32,000 nt of DNA from Candidatus Saccharimonadota bacterium (GTDB lineage Bacteria; Patescibacteriota; Saccharimonadia; Saccharimonadales; Saccharimonadaceae), in the NCBI GenBank assembly GCA_025349965.1, contig CP075337.1, positions 360,001 to 392,000 on the forward strand. The letters are read 5' to 3'. Every line of letters begins with the position of its first letter. Positions within the stretch are counted from its first letter, which is position 1. Positions 926 to 17,501 of this stretch are shown in pieces. The notes beneath the pieces were generated by a model. The model saw nothing but the letters and a program-made list of their open reading frames with translations. It was not told the origin of the DNA and ran no database searches. The translations under genes and the position numbers were made by a program.

Positions 926-3022
926 ATGGCAGCAAAAGACGTCCCACTAAAGGACTATCGCAATATTGGTATTATCGCCCATATTGACGCAGGTAAGACA
1001 ACAACAACCGAAGGTATCTTGTACCGTACTGGTATCAACCACAAGATCGGTCTTGTGAAGGGTGATGATCCAGCTGGTGCAACAACTGACTGGATGGCAC
1101 AGGAAAAAGAGCGTGGTATTACTATTACCTCAGCTGCTGTAACTGCATTCTGGAAGGGTCACAAGATTAACATCATTGACACTCCAGGTCACATCGACTT
1201 TACCGCAGAGGTAGAGCGTTCACTTCGTGTACTCGACGGCGCGGTAACTGTCTTTGACGGCAAGATGGGTGTTGAGGCTCAGACTGAAACTGTATGGCGC
1301 CAAGCAAACAAGTACGGCGTGCCTCGTATCTGTTTCATCAACAAGATCAACCAAATAGGTGGTGATTTCTGGAAGAGCCTTGAATCTATTCACAAGCGTC
1401 TTTCTAAGCAAGCGTTCCCAATTCACATTCCTATTGGATTTGAAAAAGACATCAACGGTGTTGTTGACCTTATCGACATGAAGGCATACACCTACTCTGA
1501 TTACGCTGATAAGGAGCTTATCCCAGGTGAAATCCCAGCAGACATGCTTGAGCGCGCAAAGAACGCTCGTAGCCTTCTTGTAGAAAACGCTGTTGAAGCC
1601 GACGATGAGCTTATGATGAAGTTCCTCGACGAAGGTGAAGATGCAATTACTACTGAAGAACTTAAGTCTGCACTCCGTAAGCGTGTCCTTGCTGGTGACT
1701 TCTTCCTTGTTACTGGTGGTGACGGACGTGGTGTAATCGTTGAAAAGGTGCTTGACCTTGTTGCCGATTACCTCCCATCTCCACTCGACATTGAAGCCGC
1801 TCAAGGTGTAAACCCAAAAACTGGCAACGTTGAAGAGCGTAAGTCTGATTCAAGTGAACCGCTTGCGGCGCTTGCATTCAAGATTGCAACTGACCCATTT
1901 GTTGGTAAGCTTATCTTCATCCGCGTATACTCTGGTGTGCTTAAGGCTGGTAGCTACGTACTCAACACCACTTCAGGTGAAAAAGAGCGCGTTGGACGTA
2001 TCGTCCGTATGCACGCCGACAAGCGCGAAGAAATCTCTGAAGTTACCGCTGGTGACATCGCTGCCGTTGTAGGACTCAAGGATACCTTTACTGGTGCAAC
2101 ACTTGCAGATCCAGCGCACCCAATCCAACTTGAAGGTATCGAATTCCAAGATCCTCCAGTGTCAATTGCTGTTGAGCCAAAGTCTAAGGCTGACCAAGAA
2201 AAAATGGGTATTGCCTTGCAACGCCTCGCTGAAGAAGACCCAACCTTCCGCGTTCGTACTGACGATGAAACGGGCCAGACAATTATGTCAGGTATGGGTG
2301 AGCTTCACCTCGATATTCTCATTGACCGCATGAAGCGTGAATTCAACGTTGAGGCAAACATTGGTGAGCCGCAGGTTGCCTTCCGTGAAGCAATTCGTGG
2401 CATGTCTGAAGCGCAGGGTAAGCACGCTAAGCAGTCCGGTGGACGTGGCCAGTTCGGTGATGTATGGATCCGCTTTGAGCCAACCGAAACTGGTGAAGGC
2501 TTTGAATTTGCTGACGAAATTAAGGGTGGTGTGGTTCCACAAGAGTACCGTAAAGCTGTTGAAAAGGGTATCAAGGATACGCTTGAAGGCGGTGTTATTG
2601 CTGGCTACCCAATGATCGGTGTTAAGGCGACACTTTACGACGGTTCATACCACGACGTTGACTCAAGCGAGCTTGCCTTTAACCTTGCTGGTGTACTTGC
2701 TGTAAAGGCGGGTATCCCGCAGGCGCGTCCGGTAATTCTTGAGCCTGTCATGAAGGTTGAAGTTTCGACTCCAGAAGACTTCATGGGTGATATCATCGGT
2801 GACCTTAACTCTCGCCGTGGGCGCATCGACGCTATGGACGATATCCCTGGTGGCGCTAAGCTTGTCCGTGCCTTTGTGCCACTTGCGAACCTCTTTGGCT
2901 ACACAAACGACATCCGCTCAATGAGCCAAGGTCGTGCTGCATCAACAATGGAAATTGCTCAGTACGAGGAAGTTCCGCCAAATGTTGCACAGGAAATCAT
3001 CGAGAAGCGTACTGCAAAGTAG
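926..3022 (+). CDS. fusA: translation elongation factor G
   Basis: 698-aa ORF. The N-terminus NIGIIAHIDAGKTTTTE carries the G1 motif, followed by DTPGHIDF and NKID-like G motifs, with full-length EF-G domain order. Confidence 0.97.
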   Translation: MAAKDVPLKDYRNIGIIAHIDAGKTTTTEGILYRTGINHKIGLVKGDDPAGATTDWMAQEKERGITITSAAVTAFWKGHKINIIDTPGHIDFTAEVERSLRVLDGAVTVFDGKMGVEAQTETVWRQANKYGVPRICFINKINQIGGDFWKSLESIHKRLSKQAFPIHIPIGFEKDINGVVDLIDMKAYTYSDYADKELIPGEIPADMLERAKNARSLLVENAVEADDELMMKFLDEGEDAITTEELKSALRKRVLAGDFFLVTGGDGRGVIVEKVLDLVADYLPSPLDIEAAQGVNPKTGNVEERKSDSSEPLAALAFKIATDPFVGKLIFIRVYSGVLKAGSYVLNTTSGEKERVGRIVRMHADKREEISEVTAGDIAAVVGLKDTFTGATLADPAHPIQLEGIEFQDPPVSIAVEPKSKADQEKMGIALQRLAEEDPTFRVRTDDETGQTIMSGMGELHLDILIDRMKREFNVEANIGEPQVAFREAIRGMSEAQGKHAKQSGGRGQFGDVWIRFEPTETGEGFEFADEIKGGVVPQEYRKAVEKGIKDTLEGGVIAGYPMIGVKATLYDGSYHDVDSSELAFNLAGVLAVKAGIPQARPVILEPVMKVEVSTPEDFMGDIIGDLNSRRGRIDAMDDIPGGAKLVRAFVPLANLFGYTNDIRSMSQGRAASTMEIAQYEEVPPNVAQEIIEKRTAK

Positions 3023-3033
3023 CACTTGATACG

Positions 3034-3063
3034 AAAAGCGCCTCAATCTATGGGGCGTTTTTT
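3034..3063 (+). terminator. rho-independent terminator after fusA
   Basis: Hairpin 3039-3057 (CGCCTC / GGGGCG including G-U pairs, 7-nt loop) followed by a T-run at 3058-3063. Confidence 0.6.
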
Positions 3064-3107
3064 ATTTACCATAGAACTATTTAATTTTATATCCGTACTA
3101 TGAGAGT

Positions 3108-3755
3108 ATGGAGCAAGCGATATACGAACGACCAAGAGAGAAGCTGCGTCACCACGGGGCGCATTTTCTTACGACAGTAGAGTTACTTCAGGTCTTGATT
3201 GGAGCAGGCACGGCAGGGGTTTCGGGTGCGAAGCTTGCGCGTAAAGTTGCGAAGTCGTTCGCTACTACTGAGCCTAACTACGAAACGCTCATTGTTATAC
3301 ATGGGCTTGGTCATGCAAAGACAAGTCAAATACTCGCAGCGGTTGAGTTTGGCCGACGTATGGTTCGCGAGAATAGTGACGGAGTGCTTGTGCATGATAT
3401 TCCGCGAGAAGTGTTTACTGCCAGTCTCAACGAGGCGATGGGTGCAAAGAGTATGGTGACATGCTGCTGGTTTGACGGTGCTATGACACCAATAGGGCTA
3501 ATGCAGTACCGCACACATCGAGGCGAGCAAAGTGAGTTGCTTGCGCGAAGAATCCTTTCTGATGCATTAGTTGTGTCCGCACGTAATATGTTGATCTTTT
3601 ATCCTGCATCGAGCCGAAGTTTAGTGCCGGAGACGCAAGAAATGAGCTTTGTCCGTACTATTGCTGACATGGCGCGTTATTTTCATATTGAACTCAAGGA
3701 AGTATGTGCATTTCATCAGAAGGAGTATGTGTTTTGGAAGAAAGAGGTGGTGTAA
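3108..3755 (+). CDS. RadC-like (UPF0758) protein with a degenerate JAB/MPN domain
   Basis: The N-terminus YERPREKLRHHGAHFLTTVELLQVLIGAGTAGVSGAKLA...GLGHAKTSQILAAVEFGRR matches the RadC HhH-type N-domain consensus (ERPREKL, ELL, GT.G, GIG.AK, ELGRR). The C-terminal region aligns to the JAB domain, but the HNHPSG...PS..D metal site reads IFYPASSRSLVPETQEM and contains no His. No SD is visible; TACTAT at 3096-3101 ends 6 nt before the ATG. Confidence 0.75.
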   Translation: MEQAIYERPREKLRHHGAHFLTTVELLQVLIGAGTAGVSGAKLARKVAKSFATTEPNYETLIVIHGLGHAKTSQILAAVEFGRRMVRENSDGVLVHDIPREVFTASLNEAMGAKSMVTCCWFDGAMTPIGLMQYRTHRGEQSELLARRILSDALVVSARNMLIFYPASSRSLVPETQEMSFVRTIADMARYFHIELKEVCAFHQKEYVFWKKEVV

Positions 3756-4375
3756 TGAGAGATGTGCCATTTTTACACCAAGGTTTTAGGCAGATGATTG
3801 ACTGGTTTGAGCGAGCTCAAATAGACTATCGGGAACATTTCCTTACGTTATATATTGCGTACAATGCATGGTATAGAGAGGTAACTGGACTGGCGAACGA
3901 TCGTGCTGCGATTCAGATGCTCAAGAAGCGATTTGTTATATGGGATGATTATATCCAGCATCGCACTATGGAGCGGCTAGGGTGCGTAGTGGAGAAAATT
4001 GCCGAAATAACACAAAGAAATCCTCTGCGTATTTCTGCTGTTATGCAATGGTCTGGCGAGGTAGCGGGGCGCGATGATTGGCGGTCACTTATTGAATATT
4101 GGTATTATGTGCGCTGCACCATTGTACACGGAGGGTATATAGATGAGCGGCATGCATATTTGGCGTATGAATCTCTCGGCATTTTCATGGAAGAAATTAT
4201 AGGTCGCGTAAAGATGTGTATTGAAGGATTGAGGACGAGTGAGGCGGACGAACTAACAAGGCTCGCTCAGGCGGGCGCTCAACACACCGAAAGGTTTGTT
4301 CGGCTACAGCAAAAGTTATACCTCAAATATAAAGCCATGCCGAGTGTGCGAGAAGTTGATATGCAGCGTGTATAA
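3755..4375 (+). CDS. hypothetical all-helical protein with an Rx4H (HEPN-like) motif
   Basis: The ATG at 3755 overlaps the radC-like TAA stop (TAATG), indicating translational coupling. I prefer this start to the track's 3704 start. The motif is WRSLIEYWYYVRCTIVHGGY, with R and H separated by 4 residues. The HEPN assignment is an inference from the motif only. Confidence 0.6.
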   Translation: MRDVPFLHQGFRQMIDWFERAQIDYREHFLTLYIAYNAWYREVTGLANDRAAIQMLKKRFVIWDDYIQHRTMERLGCVVEKIAEITQRNPLRISAVMQWSGEVAGRDDWRSLIEYWYYVRCTIVHGGYIDERHAYLAYESLGIFMEEIIGRVKMCIEGLRTSEADELTRLAQAGAQHTERFVRLQQKLYLKYKAMPSVREVDMQRV

Positions 4376-4481
4376 ACCTCTTTACGAACACCGTAAAACA
4401 GGGTATACTAAAGCTATACGTTGTGGAGTCTTTCTTTAGGCTTGCACACGAAATTATAATTTAAAGGAGAACTAACCAAAC

Positions 4482-5663
4482 ATGGCAGATTTCGACCGAA
4501 GCAAGCCGCACGTAAACGTTGGTACTATGGGTCACGTTGACCACGGTAAGACTACTCTTACTGCAGCGATTACTCACGTGCTTGCTAAGAAGCTACCTAG
4601 CGAAGTTAATAAGCCTCGTAACTACGACGAAATTGACAACGCACCAGAAGAAAAGGCACGTGGTATTACCATTGCTTCTTCTCACCAAGAATACGAATCA
4701 GCTAACCGCCACTACGCACACGTAGACATGCCAGGACACGCCGACTATGTTAAGAACATGATCACCGGTGCTGCTCAGGTTGACGGTGCTGTTCTTGTGG
4801 TTGCCGCAACTGACGGTCCACTTCCACAGACACGTGAGCACGTACTTCTTGCTAAGCAAGTTGGTGTGCCTAAGATCGTTGTATTCCTTAACAAGATGGA
4901 CATTGCTGATCCTGAGCTCGTTGAGCTCGTTGAAATGGACATCCGTGAACTTCTTGCTAAGAACGGCTTCGACGAAGATGCTCCAATCATCAAGGGTTCT
5001 GCTGCTAAGGCGCTCGAAGGTGATGCTGCATACGAAGACGCTATCATGGAACTTGTTGACGCTATGGATTCATACATCCCAGAGCCAGCACGCGACATGG
5101 ACAAGGACTTCCTTATGCCTATTGAGGACGTATTCTCAATCAAGGGTCGTGGTACAGTAGCAACTGGTCGTATCGAGCAGGGTGTTATCAACCTTAACGA
5201 CGAAGTTGAAATCGTTGGTATCCGTGATACACAGAAGTCTGTTGTAACAGGTATCGAAGCTTTCAAGAAGAACCTTGACAAGGGTCAGGCTGGTGACAAT
5301 GCTGGTCTTCTCCTCCGCGGTATCGAGCGTACTGACATCGAACGTGGTCAGGTGCTTGCAAAGCCAGGTTCAATCACTCCACACACAGAGTTTGAAGCTG
5401 AAGTATACATCCTTAAGAAGGAAGAAGGCGGACGCCACACTCCATTCTCTAAGGGTTACAAGCCACAGTTCTACTTCCGTACAACTGACGTAACAGGTGA
5501 AGTTGAGCTTCCAGCTGACAAGGAACTTGTTATCCCTGGCGACACACTTACCTTCAAGGTGAACCTTCTCGCTCCTATTGCTATGGAGCAAGGTCTTAAC
5601 TTCGCTATCCGCGAAGGTGGTAAGACTGTTGGTGCTGGTGTTGTTACTAAGATTGTTAAGTAA
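4482..5663 (+). CDS. tuf: translation elongation factor Tu
   Basis: 393-aa ORF with [23 protein letters not shown] and NKMD motifs. AAAGGAGA SD lies 11 nt upstream. Confidence 0.98.
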
Positions 5664-5867: not shown

Positions 5868-6185
5868 ATGGCAAAAGAAGAAGGACTTAAGATCCGTATT
5901 CGCCTTAAGGCATACGATCACAAGGTAATTGACCAGTCTGCAAAGCAGATTATCGACACAGCAATTCGCACCGGAGCGTCTATTGCTGGTCCAGTGCCTC
6001 TTCCAACACGTCGCAGTACTTTCACGGTTGTGAAGTCACCACACGTGTACAAGAAGGGTGGTGAAACATTTGAGATGCGCGTACACAAGCGTCTTATTGA
6101 CATCACTAACGCGACTCCAAAGACTATTGATAGTCTTCAGAACCTCAGCCTCCCGGCTGGCGTTGATGCTGAAATCCGTATGTAA
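5868..6185 (+). CDS. rpsJ: 30S ribosomal protein S10
   Basis: 105-aa [29 protein letters not shown]...[24 protein letters not shown] is typical uS10. Confidence 0.97.
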
Positions 6186-6233: not shown

Positions 6234-6267
6234 TAAAAAATACCCCTCATCTACGAGGGGTATTTTG
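6234..6267. terminator. bidirectional rho-independent terminator (rpsJ on +, KA-rich gene on -)
   Basis: Perfect 9-bp stem ATACCCCTC/GAGGGGTAT (6240-6263), flanked by an A-run on the left and a T-run on the right. It lies between two convergent genes. Confidence 0.7.
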
Positions 6268-6280
6268 ATATATCCGTATA

Positions 6281-6649
6281 CTACAGGGCGGCGTCTATAA
6301 GTTGTTGGTCGAGGAGATTAATAACCTCGTACTGAGTTTTAAGGATCCAAAGTTGAGCAAAAATAATTACGCTTACAAGAATAAGCCAGTATACGGTTTG
6401 ACGTGTAATTGCGAAACTCTTAAATGGCGGTTGATCACCGGCGACGTGGAATGAGCGCATCTTGGCCGTCTTTTTAGCGGCTACCTTGCGGGTTGTCGGT
6501 GCCTTCCGAGCGGTAGAGTTAGCTGTACGCTTAGCGACTGGTTTTTTAGCTGTTGATTTAGCAGCTACCGTCTTTTTAACTGGTGCCTTCCGAGCAGTAG
6601 ACGCCTTAGATGTCGTCTTTTTTGCTGCTGGTTTTTTCGTTGTTGCCAT
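6281..6649 (-). CDS. membrane-anchored Lys/Ala-rich (histone H1-like) basic protein
   Basis: 122-aa ORF. The N-terminal ~65 aa are K/A/T/P low-complexity with an internal repeat (STARKAPVKKTVAAK / STARKAPTTRKVAAK). A single hydrophobic helix VYWLILVSVIIFAQLWIL lies near the C-terminus. AGGGG SD sits 5 nt upstream of the ATG. Confidence 0.7.
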   Translation of the reverse strand: MATTKKPAAKKTTSKASTARKAPVKKTVAAKSTAKKPVAKRTANSTARKAPTTRKVAAKKTAKMRSFHVAGDQPPFKSFAITRQTVYWLILVSVIIFAQLWILKTQYEVINLLDQQLIDAAL

Positions 6650-6753
6650 AGATGCCCCTATATAACTACATATGGTAGATTAATAAATCTTATGCTTAGA
6701 GTATGACAAAGAATAGTAAAAAACACAAGGGGAATGCGACCCCATAGGGCTTG

Positions 6754-6762
6754 TGGTATACT
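6754..6762 (+). promoter_or_regulatory. putative extended -10 promoter of the pilin-RCC1 gene
   Basis: CTTGTGGTATACT, with TGgTATACT at 6754-6762. This is nearly identical to the fusA promoter string CTTGTGGTATAAT. Confidence 0.35.
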
Positions 6763-6795
6763 AGCAGTAATAAATGAGCGACAAAAGGGGTTGGT

Positions 6796-8358
6796 ATGCA
6801 TAGACGAATAGCACAAGGTTTCACTCTTGTTGAACTTATGATTGTCATTATAGTTATCGTCATCCTTGCTGTACTTGTCGGGGTTGGGTATAACGGTATT
6901 ATTGAAGGTGCTGGTGACCGGTCGCTCAAGTCGGATCTTCAGAGTGTTGAAGGGAAGATATCCCGGTATAAGGCCCAAAAAGGTGTGTACCCGGATACGT
7001 CCACGGCAAATGGGCTAGGACTCAATGTAAGCAATGATGCAACACTACTCTATCAAGGCGACGGCGGGTCTTGGTATTGCGCTTCGATTACATCCGCTGA
7101 TGGAACAACGACCTACAGTATAAGTGAAGAAGGTGTTATTCGCGATAAGAATTGCTCCTTACGGTGGAAAGCTGGTGATGATAGCCTCGGACAATTTTCT
7201 GTAGGAACGAACGGCTACGCGTGCGGTCTTGCTTTTGACGGCAAGGTGTACTGTTACGGCAATAATCTTAGTGGTGAGCTTGGTAACGGGGGAGGGTACT
7301 CGGGAGGGTTTGTTACTGCAGCCGTTGCGCAGGGCGCAATACCTGCTGGTGCCTCTCTAAAACAGGTGGCGACCGGGGGTAATTTCGCATGCGTACTAGC
7401 CTCAAACAATAAGATGTATTGCTGGGGTGGTAATTCATACGGACAACTTGGGGATAATACGACAACTCAACGAAAGACTCCGGTCGAGGTTCAGCAGGGG
7501 GCTATCCCTAGCGCTGCTACAATTAAACAGATTTTTGCAGGGCCGAACAATATGTGTGCATTAACGAATGACGGCAAGCTTTATTGTTGGGGGTATAATC
7601 TTGTCGGAGCTTTGGGTGACGGTACAACCACGAATAAATTAGTGCCTACTGCCGTATCTCAGGGCACAATGCCAGCTGGTGCGATTGTCCGGCAGGTCTC
7701 AATGAGTACTACTGTCACATGTGCTACCATCACCACGAGTGTTGATCTCTACTGCTGGGGTACGGGTGGATATGGGCAGCTAGGTAATAATGGGTATTCA
7801 TCCTCCTATACACCCTCGGTTGTATCACGGGGAGTAATGCCCGCCGGGGTGGCAATTGAACAGGTGGCTGTTGGCGACACTCATGTATGCGCCCTCCTTT
7901 CAAATAACGGACTTTATTGCTGGGGTACAAACGGAAACGGGCAAATTGGTGATGGTTCAACGACGAAGCGGATAGCGCCGACGGCAGTCTCTTTGGGTGT
8001 AATTCCTAGTTCGGTGAGTATTCGTCAAGTTGTGTCCGGAGGTAGCTACAGCTGCGCACTTGCATCGAATAAGGTTTATTGTTGGGGTAGAAATGATGTA
8101 GGGCAGTTAGGCAATGGGTCTAGTGTCCCTGCCTCTCCGTACGGCCTCTTGACGCCTGTTGCGACAGTGCAGGGCGCGATGCCGGCTCAGGGTAAGATTC
8201 AGAAGCTTGTCACCGTTCCAAATAATTTTGCGTCTACATGTGCAATTATGGATGATAGTTCGACATACTGCTGGGGAAGAAGCGCTGGATATTACGAGAA
8301 CGGCGCATATGAGGATAGGTTGGCGCCGGTGCGTATCCGGATGAATACGAGCTTGTGA
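6796..8358 (+). CDS. type IV prepilin-like N-terminus fused to a seven-bladed RCC1-repeat beta-propeller
   Basis: 520-aa ORF. MHRRIAQG|FTLVELMIVIIVIVILAVLV is a class III signal peptide with Glu at +5. It is followed by a pilin-head-sized region with C95/C120, then seven units of ~55 aa ending in YC(W/Y)GxNxxGQLGxG. AGGGG SD lies 5 nt upstream; the stop codon is TGA. Confidence 0.85.
   Translation: MHRRIAQGFTLVELMIVIIVIVILAVLVGVGYNGIIEGAGDRSLKSDLQSVEGKISRYKAQKGVYPDTSTANGLGLNVSNDATLLYQGDGGSWYCASITSADGTTTYSISEEGVIRDKNCSLRWKAGDDSLGQFSVGTNGYACGLAFDGKVYCYGNNLSGELGNGGGYSGGFVTAAVAQGAIPAGASLKQVATGGNFACVLASNNKMYCWGGNSYGQLGDNTTTQRKTPVEVQQGAIPSAATIKQIFAGPNNMCALTNDGKLYCWGYNLVGALGDGTTTNKLVPTAVSQGTMPAGAIVRQVSMSTTVTCATITTSVDLYCWGTGGYGQLGNNGYSSSYTPSVVSRGVMPAGVAIEQVAVGDTHVCALLSNNGLYCWGTNGNGQIGDGSTTKRIAPTAVSLGVIPSSVSIRQVVSGGSYSCALASNKVYCWGRNDVGQLGNGSSVPASPYGLLTPVATVQGAMPAQGKIQKLVTVPNNFASTCAIMDDSSTYCWGRSAGYYENGAYEDRLAPVRIRMNTSL
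7186..8340 (+). repeat. seven tandem RCC1-like coding repeats (~165 nt each)
   Basis: The protein-level period is 54-63 aa, with YCYG at 152 and YCWG at 208, 263, 319, 374, 428 and 491. The recurring DNA string is TAYTGYTGGGG. Confidence 0.8.
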
Positions 8359-8365
8359 TAACCTC

Positions 8366-8395
8366 TTGACAAAAGTGTGTTCAGTATGGTAACCT
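8366..8395 (+). promoter_or_regulatory. possible promoter for rplC and the downstream S10 operon
   Basis: TTGACA at 8366-8371, an 18-nt spacer, then TGgTAACCT with a poor -10 hexamer at 8390-8395. Confidence 0.25.
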
Positions 8396-8429
8396 ACTAG
8401 AGGTAACTTTACTAAAGTAATAAAAGTCG

Positions 8430-8516
8430 ATTCTTGGTGAATTGGTAAGTCCAGCAGAGTGCTGAGTTATGAAAATAACAGAGGTGCTCGGGAGGATACT
8501 GCCAGCCACCAAGAAT
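8430..8516 (+). promoter_or_regulatory. structured 5' leader upstream of rplC
   Basis: A 10-bp perfect long-range helix pairs ATTCTTGGTG (8430-8439) with CACCAAGAAT (8507-8516), enclosing ~67 nt. The enclosed region includes a small hairpin CAGCA-GAG-TGCTG (8452-8464). The helix ends 7 nt before the GGGAGA SD. Confidence 0.35.
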
Positions 8517-8539
8517 TTTAAGTGGGAGAAATGAAGAGC

Positions 8540-9163
8540 ATGAAAGCACTTCTCGGTACCAAAATTGGTATGACCCAACTCATCAGCGAAGATGGCAAGA
8601 CAGTTCCTGTCACGCTTATTCAAGCTGGACCTATCACAGTGACTCAAGTGAAGACCGTTGAAACAGACGGTTACAATGCTGTGCAAGTAGGTTATGGGGA
8701 GGGTAAGAACTTGAGCAAGGCCGTGGCTGGACACCTTAAGGCAGCCGAAATTACTCCGAAGCATATTCGTGAGTTCCGTATTGAAGACGAGTTAGAGGAG
8801 CTGACTGTTGGAAGTACAATCGATGTAACCGCATTTGAGCTCGGTGACGTTGTTGATGCAACAGGCATTAGCAAGGGTAAGGGCTTCGCAGGTAACATCA
8901 AACGACACAACTTTAACCGACATGGTAAATCCCACGGTGGTAAGGGTAATACTCGCCGCCCAGGTTCAATCGGTTCAATGTACCCACAGAAGGTCTTTAA
9001 GGGTAAGCGCATGGCAGGACGCATGGGTCACGAGCAGGTAACTGTGAAGAACCTCATCGTTAGCTATATCGACGCCGAAAACAACCTTATCGGTCTTAAG
9101 GGTGCAGTCCCTGGTCCAAAGAAGGGCCTTATCTCAATTGACATCGCAGGAGGTAAAGCATAA
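8540..9163 (+). CDS. rplC: 50S ribosomal protein L3
   Basis: MKALLGTKIGMTQ is a typical uL3 N-terminus. The ATG at 8540 lies 10 nt after the GGGAGA SD, whereas the track start at 8522 and the ATG at 8531 have no usable SD spacing. Confidence 0.93.
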   Translation: MKALLGTKIGMTQLISEDGKTVPVTLIQAGPITVTQVKTVETDGYNAVQVGYGEGKNLSKAVAGHLKAAEITPKHIREFRIEDELEELTVGSTIDVTAFELGDVVDATGISKGKGFAGNIKRHNFNRHGKSHGGKGNTRRPGSIGSMYPQKVFKGKRMAGRMGHEQVTVKNLIVSYIDAENNLIGLKGAVPGPKKGLISIDIAGGKA

Positions 9164-9777
9164 TGGCTGAGGCTAAGACTACAGCGAACGCAACACTTCC
9201 TAAGGAAGTTTTCGCGGTAGACGTGAAGAATCACGAACTACTCAAGCTTGCATACGATGCGTACCTTGCAAATGCTCGTCAAGCGAGTGCAACTACCAAA
9301 ACTCGCGGCGAAGTACGCGGTGGTGGTAAGAAGCCTTGGAAGCAGAAGGGTACTGGCCGTGCACGTTTCGGTTCAACCCGTAACCCAATTTGGCGTGGCG
9401 GTGGTATCGTATTTGGTCCACGTGGCAACGAGAACTACTCAAAGAAGATCTCAACGGCTGCAAAGCGCCAAGCTATCAAGCAGGCACTTACCCTTGCTGA
9501 GCAAGCAGGTAAGGTATCTGTAAACGATGTTAAGACAACTGGTAAGACTTCAGAAGTAGTGAAGTTCCTTGCAGACAACAAGCTTGATCGCAAGACACTC
9601 GTTGTTGTAGACGAAAAGACCCCAGAGTTAATCCGCGCTACCAACAACCTGCAGAACGTACTTCTTATCAGTACAAAGTACCTTAGCGTATACCACATTC
9701 TTAATGCGGACAACGTTGTACTTTCAAAGGCATCACTCCCAACACTTAAGAGCTGGCTCGTAAAGGAGGAGGCGTAA
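9163..9777 (+). CDS. rplD: 50S ribosomal protein L4
   Basis: 204 aa. GGGKKPWKQKGTGRARFGSTRNPIWRGGG is the uL4 signature. The start overlaps the rplC stop (TAATG). Confidence 0.97.
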   Translation: MAEAKTTANATLPKEVFAVDVKNHELLKLAYDAYLANARQASATTKTRGEVRGGGKKPWKQKGTGRARFGSTRNPIWRGGGIVFGPRGNENYSKKISTAAKRQAIKQALTLAEQAGKVSVNDVKTTGKTSEVVKFLADNKLDRKTLVVVDEKTPELIRATNNLQNVLLISTKYLSVYHILNADNVVLSKASLPTLKSWLVKEEA

Positions 9778-9778
9778 T

Positions 9779-10120
9779 ATGGCAAAGAACCTATCTACCA
9801 TCCTCGTTACTCCAGTAACGACTGAAAAGGCCTATGGCCTTAGCCAGAAGAACATCTACGTTTTCAACGTGCCACTTCAGGCTAACAAAAACGAAATCAC
9901 AGACGCTGTAACTTCACAGTACGGCGTTGAAGTAAAAGCTATCAAGACGCTTGTGCAATCAGGCAAGGCAGTTCGCTACTCACGTGGTAAGAACCGCTAC
10001 CCTGGTACAACACACCGTGTTGATACAAAGAAGGCATACGTGACACTTGCCGAAGGCAGTTCACTCGCACTCTTTGAAACACCAGAAGAAGAACCTAAGA
10101 CGAAAGAGGAGAAGAAGTAA
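9779..10120 (+). CDS. rplW: 50S ribosomal protein L23
   Basis: 113 aa in the conserved position. The uL23-like core is followed by an acidic/basic tail ETPEEEPKTKEEKK. Confidence 0.93.
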   Translation: MAKNLSTILVTPVTTEKAYGLSQKNIYVFNVPLQANKNEITDAVTSQYGVEVKAIKTLVQSGKAVRYSRGKNRYPGTTHRVDTKKAYVTLAEGSSLALFETPEEEPKTKEEKK

Positions 10121-14757: not shown

Positions 14758-15159
14758 ATGTCATTACAATCTACAGACCCAATCGCTGACCTCCTTACCC
14801 GTATTCGTAACGCGGTGATGGTTGGCAAGAACGAAATTACTGTACCTTCAAGCAAGCTTAAGGTAGTGGTAGCAAAAGAGCTTAAGAAGGCTGGATACCT
14901 TACTGATGTAAAGGTTGAAAGTGCTAAGCCTCGCGATATCCTTGTTGTAACAATCAACAAAGAAGGCGAAAACTCTAACATCAACGAAATCAAGCGCCTC
15001 TCAAAGCCCGGACGTCGTATGTACACAAGTGCAGCTGATATTCCAAAGGTAAAGAGCGGACGTGGTATCGTTCTTGTGAGTACTTCAAAGGGTGTTATCA
15101 CTGGTACTGAGGCTGCTAAGCAGCGCCTTGGTGGTGAGCTTCTCCTTAGCGTTTACTAG
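14758..15159 (+). CDS. rpsH: 30S ribosomal protein S8
   Basis: 133 aa. DPIADLLTRIRNA is the uS8 signature. Confidence 0.97.
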   Translation: MSLQSTDPIADLLTRIRNAVMVGKNEITVPSSKLKVVVAKELKKAGYLTDVKVESAKPRDILVVTINKEGENSNINEIKRLSKPGRRMYTSAADIPKVKSGRGIVLVSTSKGVITGTEAAKQRLGGELLLSVY

Positions 15160-15184
15160 TAGACGCTTTAGGGGCAACCTATAT

Positions 15185-15217
15185 AAAAAGAACCTCTCGT
15201 TACGGGAGGTTCTTTTT
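15185..15217. terminator. bidirectional rho-independent terminator (rpsH on +, coiled-coil gene on -)
   Basis: AAAAAGAACCTC...GAGGTTCTTTTT: a 7-bp core stem (15190-15212) with an A-run and a T-run on either side, lying between convergent genes. Confidence 0.7.
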
Positions 15218-15230
15218 GATTGTAAGATGA

Positions 15231-15722
15231 TTAGAAGGTGAGCCGGTCTATTTCTTGTTGCACAGATTGCAGCTCGCGGTCACGATCTTGTTGCATCTGT
15301 TGTTCTTGGGTATTTGCATCACCCTGTAACCTGGAAATTTGCCCATCAAGGTCTCGCTGTCTGTTTGGGTCTTGTTCGTTTTGCCGTTGCCGCTCAAGGT
15401 CGTTTCGTTTTTGTCGCGTATCGGCTTCAAAGCGAGCTTTCCGGTTCTGGAAGTCGTTCATAAGCTGGGAACGTTTAGTCTCGAGACGAGATATTTGACT
15501 GCGATTATCTGATATTTTTCGATTGATATCGTCAATTTCACGTTGCAATTGGTTTTTTCTATCTTTTTCACGCCCCATCATTGCACCGGCTACAGTCCCA
15601 AGTAATGAGCCTTTTGTCAGTGCTGCCCCTACGCCTGCACCTGCGATCTTATTACCTACAGATTCAAGCTCGCGCTCTTTCTCGCGTAATTGATTTTCAA
15701 GTTGTTGAATACTTTCTGGCAT
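15231..15722 (-). CDS. hypothetical coiled-coil protein with a glycine-zipper hydrophobic segment
   Basis: The start is taken at MPESIQQ (ATG at 15722) because AGGAG lies 6 nt upstream and the longer track ORF (to 15818) would overlap the upstream gene. The segment IAGAGVGAALTKGSLLGTVAGAMMG is followed by ~110 aa of Q/R/D/E-rich heptad-like sequence. Confidence 0.6.
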   Translation of the reverse strand: MPESIQQLENQLREKERELESVGNKIAGAGVGAALTKGSLLGTVAGAMMGREKDRKNQLQREIDDINRKISDNRSQISRLETKRSQLMNDFQNRKARFEADTRQKRNDLERQRQNEQDPNRQRDLDGQISRLQGDANTQEQQMQQDRDRELQSVQQEIDRLTF

Positions 15723-15732
15723 CTTATTCTCC

Positions 15733-16128
15733 TTATTTAATCTCCGGATACTTATCTGGTGCATTACGGCAATAGGTGACCCATTTATCATCTTCGTTGG
15801 GCATGGTGACAGTTTCAATATAGTAGCCCTCGGAAAACCCGCCTTTGCGCTCTGATTTTTTTGTCATTACTTCAAGTAGCTGCTCTTTCGGGATATTATT
15901 CGTAAGGCAAAGATCTTCAATAACTTGCTGCACGTCAGCGAGCTCCTCAATAAGTTCATCTTGAGTGAGAGCGGCGTTTACTTCATCTGCTTCTTCGTGA
16001 AGCTTTGCGGTCAGCGCCGAAGTAAGTTCCGAACCTTCAAGTTTTTTTACTGTACTTTTATGACCTGCCTCATCATGAAAAGAAGGAATGTTATTGCGAA
16101 CAAGTTTTTCATAGACAAAGGTGGGCAT
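15733..16128 (-). CDS. MazG-like / PRA-PH-like nucleoside triphosphate pyrophosphohydrolase
   Basis: MPTFVYEKLVRNNIPS...LHEEADEV...LIEELADVQQVIEDL...KKSERKGGF matches the all-alpha NTP-PPase pattern (KLVRD.IP, EE..E, EE.AD). GGAG lies 5 nt before the ATG at 16128; the track start is 16143. Confidence 0.65.
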   Translation of the reverse strand: MPTFVYEKLVRNNIPSFHDEAGHKSTVKKLEGSELTSALTAKLHEEADEVNAALTQDELIEELADVQQVIEDLCLTNNIPKEQLLEVMTKKSERKGGFSEGYYIETVTMPNEDDKWVTYCRNAPDKYPEIK

Positions 16129-16176
16129 TGAATCTCCAGTCAATAGTTAACGAATGGTATGCTATTATTGTAGCAA

Positions 16177-16815
16177 ATGGAGGATGGTGTAGTGTCAGAA
16201 GGCAGATATGTTGTTATTGAGGGTACAGATGGGACGGGAAAGTCAACGCAAGTAGAGCGGCTCGCTCAAAGATTAGAGGGGCTTGGTCATGAGGTGGTGC
16301 AATTTCATGAACCCGATGGCACCGAGATATCTGCAGAGATACGAACAATTATTAAGAATGGCGACCTAGCGCGCACTGCGTTTACGAATCTGCTTTTGTT
16401 TAGTGCGGCCCGCCGCGAGAATTGGCTACAAACAGGACTTCCGACTCTAGAGCGCGGTGGCTGGGTGGTCTCGGCGCGAGATTACACGTCAACACTGGCG
16501 TATCAGGGGTATGGCGAAGGGCTCGACCTCAGGGTGATTTCACGCATTACTGCACTTTCAACTGACGAGCGATACATGAGTCCTGATAAAATGATTATTC
16601 TCGATCTTGATGATGAAGTAGAGCGAAAGCGCCGCATTGAGTCTCGTGGTGAACTTGAAAACCCAGACACTTTTGAATCGAAGGATGCTGAATTTCAACT
16701 TCGTGTGCAAGAAGCGTATAGGGATATTGCGAGGAAGCGTGGCTTGGCTGTGGTTTCTGCGTCTCGTACGGCCGAATTGGTTGAGGCTGACATTTGGCGT
16801 ATTGTAAATAGCTAG
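16177..16815 (+). CDS. tmk: thymidylate (dTMP) kinase
   Basis: YVVIEGTDGTGKSTQ is the P-loop, with FHEPDGTEISAEIR and a DRY-like ARDYTSTLAYQG. The start may instead be the GTG at 16192, which lies 7 nt after GGAGGA. Confidence 0.88.
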   Translation: MEDGVVSEGRYVVIEGTDGTGKSTQVERLAQRLEGLGHEVVQFHEPDGTEISAEIRTIIKNGDLARTAFTNLLLFSAARRENWLQTGLPTLERGGWVVSARDYTSTLAYQGYGEGLDLRVISRITALSTDERYMSPDKMIILDLDDEVERKRRIESRGELENPDTFESKDAEFQLRVQEAYRDIARKRGLAVVSASRTAELVEADIWRIVNS

Positions 16816-16841
16816 CGAAGGTTGCTTTTTTACTCTATTCG

Positions 16842-16853
16842 TGCTACTATAAA
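16842..16853 (+). promoter_or_regulatory. putative extended -10 promoter for the distal spc operon (rplF onward)
   Basis: TGcTACTATAAA at 16842-16853, about 115 nt upstream of rplF. The leader contains small hairpins: GAGATCT-TGGG-AGATTTT and ACCGC-CTTTAAA-GCGGT. Confidence 0.3.
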
Positions 16854-16967
16854 TCAGATAATAAATTGCGAGTGAGATCTTGGGAGATTTTGCGCTAGAA
16901 CCGCCTTTAAAGCGGTCGAAGCACAGGAGAAAACAAACATCTTGCTTGCCATAACGAAAGGTAAGAC

Positions 16968-17501
16968 ATGAGTCGAATCGGAAAACTACCTATTGACGTA
17001 CCTGCTGGTGTGACAATTACGGTCGGCGAGAGTGAAATTACTGTCGAGGGTGCCAAGGGCAAACTCGTCGTTCCTCACCTCAGCGACGTAACCGTAGCTG
17101 TTGACGCTGGTGTTGCGACAGTAACACGTAACAACGACGAACGCATTGCAAAGGCACAACACGGCCTTCAGCGTTCACTCCTTAACAATGCTGTTGAGGG
17201 AATCACTAAGGGCTTTGAAAAGAAGCTTGAAGTAAACGGTGTTGGATTCCGCGTAGAAGGCGGCGGCCAAGAGCTTAAGATGGCACTTGGTTTTTCACAC
17301 CCAGTTATCTACAAGGCAAAAGAAGGTGTACAGCTTGAAGTAAACAAGATGGAAATCACTGTAAAGGGTATCGACAAGCAACTTGTTGGCCAGACTGCAG
17401 CTGAAATCCGTGCACTTAAGAAGCCTGAACCATACAAGGGTAAGGGTATTAAGTATGCTGACGAAGTTATTCTTCGCAAGGCTGGAAAGGCAGGTAAGTA
17501 A
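16968..17501 (+). CDS. rplF: 50S ribosomal protein L6
   Basis: 177 aa. MSRIGKLPIDVPAGV... Confidence 0.97.
   Translation: MSRIGKLPIDVPAGVTITVGESEITVEGAKGKLVVPHLSDVTVAVDAGVATVTRNNDERIAKAQHGLQRSLLNNAVEGITKGFEKKLEVNGVGFRVEGGGQELKMALGFSHPVIYKAKEGVQLEVNKMEITVKGIDKQLVGQTAAEIRALKKPEPYKGKGIKYADEVILRKAGKAGK

Follow-up and report, generated by a model that had tools for sequence, protein, structure and literature searches.

An RCC1-propeller pilin with a canonical prepilin signal, encoded between rpsJ and rplC of the cultivated Saccharibacterium TM7i

Modular pilins, in which a ligand-binding module is grafted onto a pilin module, are widespread and rich in examples from the candidate phyla radiation (CPR) (Raynaud et al. 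2021, PMC8179133). The closest described counterpart of the protein reported here is PilX2 of Nanosynbacter lyticus TM7x, a minor pilin of the type IV pilus (T4P) system T4P-2 with a seven-bladed RCC1 propeller (Grossman et al., PMC11623550; ISME J 2025;19:wraf119, PMC12206443). Deletion of pilX2 lowered host binding of TM7x from 10.6% to 4.6% and abolished competitive fitness, and PilX2 was proposed to be a pilus adhesin; it was described without a predicted PilD signal and is encoded in pilin locus three beside pilA2 (PMC11623550, PMC12206443). We analyzed a 32,000-nucleotide stretch of a Saccharibacteria genome (GenBank assembly GCA_025349965.1, contig CP075337.1, positions 360,001 to 392,000; hereafter the window) in which a lone gene between rpsJ and rplC encodes a 520-aa protein, UTX51684.1, that joins a pilin-type N-terminus to an RCC1-like propeller.

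The window, from Candidatus Saccharibacteria bacterium TM7i, spans the str/S10/spc/alpha region of ribosomal-protein genes, and its EF-Tu and SecY are exactly identical to UTX51681.1 and UTX51707.1 of this strain. TM7i is a cultivated episymbiont of Leucobacter aridocollis, and an inhibitor of PilB blocks both its twitching motility and its association with the host (PMC9894109). The gene lies between rpsJ (5868-6185) upstream and rplC (8522-9163) downstream, and the NCBI annotation of its product reads only ‘prepilin-type N-terminal cleavage/methylation domain-containing protein’. The identical arrangement, at 99.65% DNA identity, is present in an independent assembly (ENA metagenome-assembled genome locus L087) and is therefore not an assembly artifact. 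Between the two copies of the gene there are five synonymous and two non-synonymous differences, neither of the latter in the propeller. The gene and its parts are as follows (AF2, AlphaFold2; pLDDT, predicted local distance difference test).

6796-8358, + strand: pilin-RCC1 fusion gene, complete; 520 aa, translation identical to UTX51684.1 (TM7i)
6796-6819, + strand: class III (prepilin) leader MHRRIAQG; predicted PilD cleavage after Gly8, leaving Phe at +1 and Glu at +5
6820-6981, + strand: predicted alpha-1 helix, residues 9-62; hydrophobic N-terminal half, amphipathic C-terminal half
6982-7155, + strand: predicted pilin head, residues 63-120; four antiparallel strands (AF2)
7156-7188, + strand: predicted flexible linker, residues 121-131; pLDDT below 50 over residues 120-131 in the full-length AF2 model
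7189-8340, + strand: predicted seven-bladed RCC1-like beta-propeller, residues 132-515; 28 strands, one Cys pair per blade

The N-terminal sequence of UTX51684.1, MHRRIAQG followed after the predicted cleavage site by FTLVELMIVIIVIVILAVLV, is a canonical prepilin signal (MHRRIAQG/FTLVE). It was recognized by Pfam N_methyl (PF07963; 23.8 bits against a gathering threshold of 21.2, residues 4-28) and by NCBIfam IV_pilin_GFxxxE (TIGR02532; 22.6 against a cutoff of 16.3), which bears out the class III signal with G/F cleavage and Glu+5 proposed in an earlier sequence-only reading of this DNA. Phe+1, Thr+2, Val+4 and Glu+5 are invariant in 14 single-propeller members of the family. In the full-length AF2 model (19 homologues, mean pLDDT 83.6), the signal continues into an alpha-1 helix spanning residues 11-62, which extends over residues 9-62 when the head is modeled alone. 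In pilins, the alpha-1 helix is the filament-core assembly interface. The four strands of the head were placed at residues 82-89, 94-100, 106-110 and 115-117.

Because the propeller dominated the Foldseek search with the full-length model, we modeled the head separately (residues 1-132, pLDDT 80.4). The six best matches of this head-only model in the PDB are all type IV pilins, led by Thermus thermophilus PilA4 (6xxd; E 3.6e-4, template-modeling score (TM) 0.60/0.63) and including meningococcal PilV, gonococcal pilin and P. aeruginosa PilE, in agreement with the pilin-like fold that had been anticipated for residues 1-125. A profile of the family likewise matched PilA4 over the whole head (E 2.2e-10), as well as geopilin, PilE and, over residues 7-74, GspG. 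PilA4 is thus the best match of residues 9-120 in both fold and profile; PilA4 and GspG, at 110-140 aa, consist of a single module and, unlike the TM7i protein, lack a C-terminal one. We rejected a pseudopilin of the type II secretion system (GspG/H) as the identity of the protein, since the GspG/H matches span the N-terminal helix only and fall far below their cutoffs. A homology search with the head alone (residues 1-140) returned just two weak pilin-sized matches, its sequence being too divergent for a word-based index. Its two cysteines, Cys95 and Cys120, are a candidate disulfide of the D-region type; the pair is kept in 13 of 15 family heads, and Cys120 borders the low-confidence linker. 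Judged by these models, the N-terminus of UTX51684.1 is a type IV pilin with a class III signal and a lollipop-type fold.

The remainder of the protein matched the Pfam RCC1-like domain PF25390 over residues 150-515 (196.9 bits; gathering threshold 150), together with multiple RCC1 (PF00415) and RCC1_2 (PF13540) repeats. Seven C...YC[W/Y]G motifs recur with a period of 54-63 aa, QGA(I/M)PAG..(K/R)QV strings occur between the blades, and the protein contains 16 cysteines, namely Cys95, Cys120 and seven blade pairs spaced by 9-11 residues; our recount of units, strings and cysteines returned the numbers given in the sequence-only reading. The AF2 propeller consists of seven times four strands with pLDDT mostly above 90, and its best structural match is UVR8 (4dnw; E 3.6e-35, TM 0.87), followed by HERC2, RPGR and RCC1 (Foldseek). 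UVR8 is also the best match in sequence for residues ~132-515 (E 3e-40). We are confident that the modeled propeller represents a closed seven-bladed RCC1 fold, as had been expected from the number of repeats. UVR8, RCC1 and the RCC1-like domain of HERC2, which provide the best matches in sequence and fold, are cytoplasmic or nuclear eukaryotic proteins and differ in lacking the blade Cys pair; the UVR8 residues aligned to the blade cysteines are Ala and Gly.

The blade pairs are Cys143/153, 199/209, 254/264, 309/320, 365/375, 420/429 and 482/492. In the AF2 model, the two cysteines of a blade occupy mirrored positions on adjacent antiparallel strands, with equal register in all seven blades (for example, Cys199 on strand 197-202 and Cys209 on strand 207-211), and are therefore predicted to be direct cross-strand partners. 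In the crystal structure of ACR4, a plant receptor kinase, each blade of the extracellular propeller contains one disulfide (bioRxiv 10.1101/2020.08.10.245050). The deposited ACR4 sequence (7a0j) aligned to the TM7i propeller by BLASTP (E 1e-13, 23% identity), and the cysteine columns coincide at 11 of 12 aligned positions over six blades, so that the earlier suggestion of disulfide-bonded blade pairs is plausible. Like the TM7i protein, ACR4/CRINKLY4 (PDB 7a0j, 7a0k) has a seven-bladed RCC1-like propeller in which every blade holds exactly one Cys pair, in the motif xC[AG][LI]...xC[WY]G; it differs in being a receptor kinase from plants, in having an N-terminal strand that fills the pore and a Cys-rich domain resembling the tumor necrosis factor receptor, and in lacking a pilin module. 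The same HTCA...(Y/W)CWG pair is found in every repeat of non-pilin RCC1 proteins from Chloroflexus, Actinoplanes and Gemmatimonadales. The second blade cysteine had been singled out as a special feature; the pair is instead generic to bacterial RCC1 repeats and not peculiar to UTX51684.1, and the comparison supports well the view that disulfide stapling of the blades is a family trait of secreted RCC1 repeats.

In its overall design, UTX51684.1 resembles the modular pilins PilB (von Willebrand factor A module) and PilC (lectin module) of Streptococcus sanguinis, in which a pilin module is followed by a short linker and a grafted module (PMC8179133). Domain scans and the AF2 model place the TM7i protein within the modular pilins, although the RCC1 propeller is not among the frequent architectures named in the main text of that study (PMC8179133). 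The PilY1/PilC tip adhesins of Pseudomonas, Neisseria and Myxococcus likewise present an adhesive seven-bladed beta-propeller at a type IV pilus; these are non-pilin proteins, whereas the TM7i protein has a pilin N-terminus and a propeller of the RCC1 type. A PilY1-type identity was rejected, as neither IPR008707 nor the Neisseria_PilC family was found in the Pfam and NCBIfam scans.

The closest comparison is with PilX2, which comes from the same phylum and clade (G1) and shares a pilin-type N-terminal helix and head, a C-terminal seven-bladed RCC1 propeller and a high GAST content (Gly, Ala, Ser and Thr). The published description sets PilX2 apart in two respects: the TM7i protein has a textbook G/FTLVE signal including Glu5, and its gene stands alone between rpsJ and rplC, while pilX2 lies in a pilin cluster. 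Canonical fusions are numerous as well. N_methyl and RCC1 domains occur together in about a dozen of the best 120 homology matches, and an exhaustive HMMER search with residues 1-215 recovered at least 18 representatives at 50% identity that are collinear from the signal peptide into the first blade, 12 of them single-propeller proteins of 493-528 aa with 31-43% full-length identity to the TM7i protein. The sequence-only reading knew of no described pilin-RCC1 architecture; with PilX2 published, modular pilins a known class and canonical fusions common in metagenomes and databases, this architecture has already been described. UTX51684.1 represents neither a new architecture nor a new mechanism, and what is fresh is only that a class of RCC1 pilins has a canonical signal and an orphan location.

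A second kind of RCC1-propeller protein exists in the same group. L004, a locus from a close TM7i relative (RplC 84% identical), encodes a 571-aa RCC1-propeller protein with the Glu5-less N-terminus KGFMLPTVMVI and no N_methyl match. The homologue P0003 has a Glu5-less N-terminus of the same type, likewise lacking an N_methyl match and unrelated to that of the TM7i protein, and a propeller 46% identical to that of TM7i. Set against the TM7i protein, these two show that RCC1 propellers in this group are mounted on pilin modules of at least two kinds, of which the TM7i protein, by its sequence, represents the canonical one with Glu5. Searching for TM7x PilX2 or a TM7i paralogue with the L004 module that lacks Glu5 returned one fragment. 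In L004, the 571-aa gene is the last of a four-gene minor-pilin cluster (1792-5252, + strand) between fusA and a radC-like gene, preceded by three pilins that carry N_methyl motifs (167, 146 and 281 aa); in TM7i this position is a gap of 86 bp. The cluster agrees with what has been published on the PilX2-type locus.

Few CPR bacteria are in cultivation; TM7i is among them, and it depends on type IV pili to attach to its host. We consider it moderately likely that UTX51684.1 is a modular T4P pilin, incorporated as a low-abundance subunit, whose propeller serves as a ligand-binding adhesin that tethers TM7i to Leucobacter. The sequence of events that we infer comprises PilD processing, filament incorporation, disulfide formation and recognition of a ligand. 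The prepilin peptidase PilD would cut the 8-residue leader to expose the N-terminal Phe, and the alpha-1 helix and small head would let the T4P machinery of TM7i polymerize the protein into the pilus at low abundance. The flexible linker of ~11 residues would hang the 40-kDa seven-bladed propeller outside the filament, with one disulfide per blade stiffening it for extracellular life. The propeller could then bind the actinobacterial host (Leucobacter), probably via a cell-wall glycopolymer or a surface protein, and this tethering would precede pilus retraction, which would draw the TM7i and host cells together. Leucobacter is a member of the Microbacteriaceae. For PilX2, the authors favor glycans as ligands, and rhamnose inhibited host binding (PMC11623550, PMC12206443); they also noted that rhamnose-rich wall polysaccharides have been described in Microbacteriaceae (PMC11623550). 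By analogy, a rhamnose-type ligand for the TM7i propeller is only a lead.

Several observations are consistent with an adhesive pilin. The T4P machinery presupposed by the sequence-only reading has been reported as present and active in TM7i (PMC9894109; PMC11623550, PMC12206443), whose genome has expressed pilB, pilT, pilC, pilM and pilin genes (PMC9894109). Two sets of T4P machinery occur in all clade G1 genomes, and PilD of TM7x belongs to locus one (PMC11623550, PMC12206443); the TM7i preprint mentions neither pilD nor pilins. The GAST content of UTX51684.1 is 40%, compared with 27-33% in the cytoplasmic proteins of the window, and high GAST content has been reported for exposed Saccharibacteria pilins (PMC11623550). 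Its disordered linker resembles those of bimodular pilins (PMC8179133). Because the analogous propeller pilin of TM7x is needed for efficient host binding, the genetics of PilX2 give the adhesin interpretation an experimental precedent, and the earlier proposal of a minor pilin or adhesin is reasonable and well supported in this respect. UTX51684.1 is a concrete candidate adhesin for TM7i and also bears on how host range is set.

Other observations weigh against this interpretation. The gene is an orphan: domain scans found no T4P gene within the 32-kb window, in which only one prepilin motif occurs. Orthology to PilX2 is not demonstrable, with both signal and locus differing from the description of PilX2, and the 571-aa protein of L004 resembles the TM7i protein in its propeller only (33% identical from residue 129 on), the N-terminal modules being unrelated. 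The isolation of the gene from pilus genes would suit a protein that needs its class III signal and hydrophobic helix only to be exported and anchored in the membrane and that displays its propeller at the cell surface instead of on a filament, like the archaeal sugar-binding proteins with prepilin-type signals. Relatives of the gene are scattered among housekeeping operons, often as tandem paralogue arrays and never beside pilB, pilC or pilM, and the very thin pili of Saccharibacteria (1.8-3.2 nm; PMC11623550, PMC12206443) may not readily accommodate a bulky module of 40 kDa. A mere anchor, however, would need neither the full PilA4-like head nor the conserved Glu5; PilX2, which carries the same kind of module, acts genetically as a T4P-2 component; and bimodular pilins polymerize through their pilin module (PMC8179133). 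We therefore regard a simple membrane anchor as a possible but rather doubtful account of the protein.

Two further explanations, which like the membrane anchor are less well supported, concern the task of the propeller. BLIP-II of Streptomyces, an inhibitor of beta-lactamases, is a bacterial RCC1-like propeller of seven blades that is secreted and structurally close to ACR4, and RCC1 propellers typically bind proteins (RCC1-Ran, RPGR-PDE6D, HERC2), which makes a protein-binding inhibitor or effector directed at host envelope enzymes conceivable. BLIP-II is absent, though, from the sequence and fold matches obtained here and has no blade disulfides, and a pilin tether would be odd for a diffusible inhibitor, so that we consider such a role very unlikely. 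A pilus-borne module with a non-adhesive task, such as capture of DNA for natural transformation, seems slightly less probable still: RCC1 binds chromatin and T4P take up DNA in many bacteria, but pilX2, pilA2 and pilB2 mutants of TM7x transform at wild-type rates (PMC11623550, PMC12206443), and no similarity to DNA receptors of the ComZ or ComEA type appeared in any scan.

If UTX51684.1 is indeed an adhesive pilin, its canonical Glu5 signal, unlike the N-terminus of PilX2, invites a natural comparison of how bulky modules are mounted on the thinnest known pili, whether at the tip or along the shaft. Pilins with Glu5 are not confined to the first tip position, unlike subunits of the GspK/PilX type. 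We tentatively suggest, as a conjecture with the odds well against it, that Saccharibacteria have two evolutionarily separate classes of RCC1 pilins, one a Glu5-less, PilX/GspK-like tip subunit encoded in minor-pilin clusters and the other a canonical, PilD-processed, PilA4-like pilin with Glu5, encoded by orphan genes set between housekeeping operons. Since Glu5 is present, members of the second class could be polymerized anywhere along the filament, which would produce a multivalent, lectin-like pilus. One locus-three pilin has been reported as lost in TM7i, and under this conjecture the orphan may compensate for it and may set the specificity for Leucobacter.

The genomic setting of the gene can be read against other Saccharibacteria. 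The following features surround it (ORF, open reading frame).

6281-6649, - strand: small ORF of 122 aa, convergent with rpsJ; Lys/Ala-rich histone-H1/HC2-like N-terminal tail and one C-terminal transmembrane helix
6730-8362, + strand: lineage-specific insertion of ~1.63 kb, from DNA alignment to the closest relatives
6754-6795, + strand: putative own expression signals of the pilin-RCC1 gene, read from the sequence; extended -10-like TGGTATACT (6754-6762) and Shine-Dalgarno-like AAAGGGG (6784-6790)
8366-8517, + strand: rplC promoter-like -35 element TTGACA (8366-8371) and 5' leader hairpin (8429-8517); intact, starting 8 nt past the pilin stop

We surveyed 80 Saccharibacteria loci around rplC. 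The 43 measurable rpsJ-rplC gaps span 202 to 6567 bp, and none is tight; rpsJ is absent upstream of rplC in another 23 loci, each with 8.6 kb or more of sequence on that side. Gap cargo includes VanY, PGA_cap, a sigma-70-like protein, a nucleotidyl transferase and a 1470-aa protein. The near-universal adjacency of rpsJ and rplC invoked in the sequence-only reading does not hold for Saccharibacteria, where the junction is always open and its cargo variable. Prepilin-type genes occupy 3 of 44 such gaps, those of TM7i, L028 and L037. L028 carries a plain 200-aa pilin (9245-9847, + strand), whereas the 388-aa pilin of L037 (5201-6367, - strand) has a head 34% identical to that of TM7i fused to a Fib_succ_major module instead. 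Pilin genes have landed repeatedly at the rpsJ-rplC junction, with different modules exchanged on a shared head. More generally, fixed junctions within the ribosomal-protein cluster tolerate insertions in Saccharibacteria, and surface and pilin genes recur at them; this should aid the search for fast-evolving host-interaction genes in CPR bacteria.

While the sequence-only reading placed the gene correctly between rpsJ and rplC, it missed a second gene in the gap, the minus-strand ORF at 6281-6649. This small ORF has a weak HC2-like match (Pfam/NCBIfam). Of 44 Saccharibacteria loci, 16 have a homologue at this junction, including those of the four closest relatives, in which it is the sole gap gene (gaps of 557-668 bp), and the TM7i and L087 copies differ at three positions, all synonymous. 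The small ORF is the ancestral resident of the gap. The pilin-RCC1 gene lies within a lineage-specific segment that has this conserved ORF on one side and the rplC promoter and leader, both intact, on the other: homology of the left flank to L014, L004 and L005 reaches up to ..AACACAAG (6722-6729), and the right flank is 94-96% identical to relatives from TTGACA (8366-8371) onward. Neither direct nor inverted repeats flank the insertion, and the composition of the gene is native-like (GC 49.8% vs 47.4%; GC at third codon positions 0.449 vs 0.441; codon usage). In the absence of boundary repeats and of a compositional anomaly, we rejected recent horizontal transfer or insertion of a mobile element.

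Relatives of the gene in other genomes are found alone or in tandem paralogue arrays among housekeeping operons, for example upstream of atp genes, between rpmE and rpsB, after clpP and before secG; none adjoins pilB, pilC or pilM. In other CPR genomes, we also observed pilin-like genes and genes for giant surface proteins inserted between tsf and frr, as well as tandem arrays of two to four pilin-RCC1 copies (L002 14500-19183; L084 7221-12694; L086 9193-15540 and 21010-22733).

The segment 6754-6795, which contains the putative expression signals, has no counterpart in the undisrupted spacers of relatives, and the pilin-RCC1 gene probably has its own promoter. A consensus-based scan for promoters and terminators gave nothing convincing for this gene and no terminator after it, and its transcription may read through into rplC. 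Farther upstream, a perfect 12-bp inverted repeat at 6237-6266 (AAAATACCCCTC / GAGGGGTATTTT), between rpsJ and the convergent small ORF, resembles a bidirectional terminator; if it acts as one, rpsJ would be transcribed apart from rplC in this lineage. The only Rfam match in the region, STnc430, was sub-threshold, overlaps the rpsJ terminator and is most likely due to chance.

The promoter-like element and the leader are conserved upstream of rplC at homologous positions in L004-L083. The leader of the rplC-rplD-rplW-rplB operon folds into a long hairpin with an outer stem formed by ATTCTTGGTG/CACCAAGAAT and an inner conserved part, GGTAAGTCC...GGATACTGCC, with a minimum free energy of -41.1 kcal/mol (z = -3.9). 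Across 40 Saccharibacteria leaders, double compensatory changes occur in 13 of 15 pairs, 88.6% of the alignment cells are paired, compared with 37-55% in slid controls, and the covariation score of 0.474 (shuffles, 0.255) was reached by none of 500 shuffles. The leader had no match in Rfam 15 at E <= 1, and in a 2020 survey of ribosomal leaders the archaeal L4 leader is the sole entry for the rplC-rplD-rplW-rplB operon. The hairpin is a good candidate for a ribosomal-protein leader with an autoregulatory role that has so far gone undescribed.

Elsewhere in the window, a second interruption of the ribosomal cluster (15160-16967) separates rpsH (14758-15159) from rplF (16968-17501) and holds a thymidylate kinase gene (16177-16815, + strand), a MazG/PRA-PH-like ORF (15733-16143, - strand) and an ORF of 195 aa (15231-15818, - strand). 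Between fusA and tuf (3108-4375, + strand), a gene for a protein with only UPF0758_N (the radC-like N-terminal domain) overlaps a 223-aa ORF without a Pfam match, and the pair is kept at the same position in L004, L007, L014 and L087. Upstream of fusA (37-816, + strand) lies a very acidic ORF of 259 aa that matched no family and is weakly similar (27% over 143 aa) to an ORF of L007.

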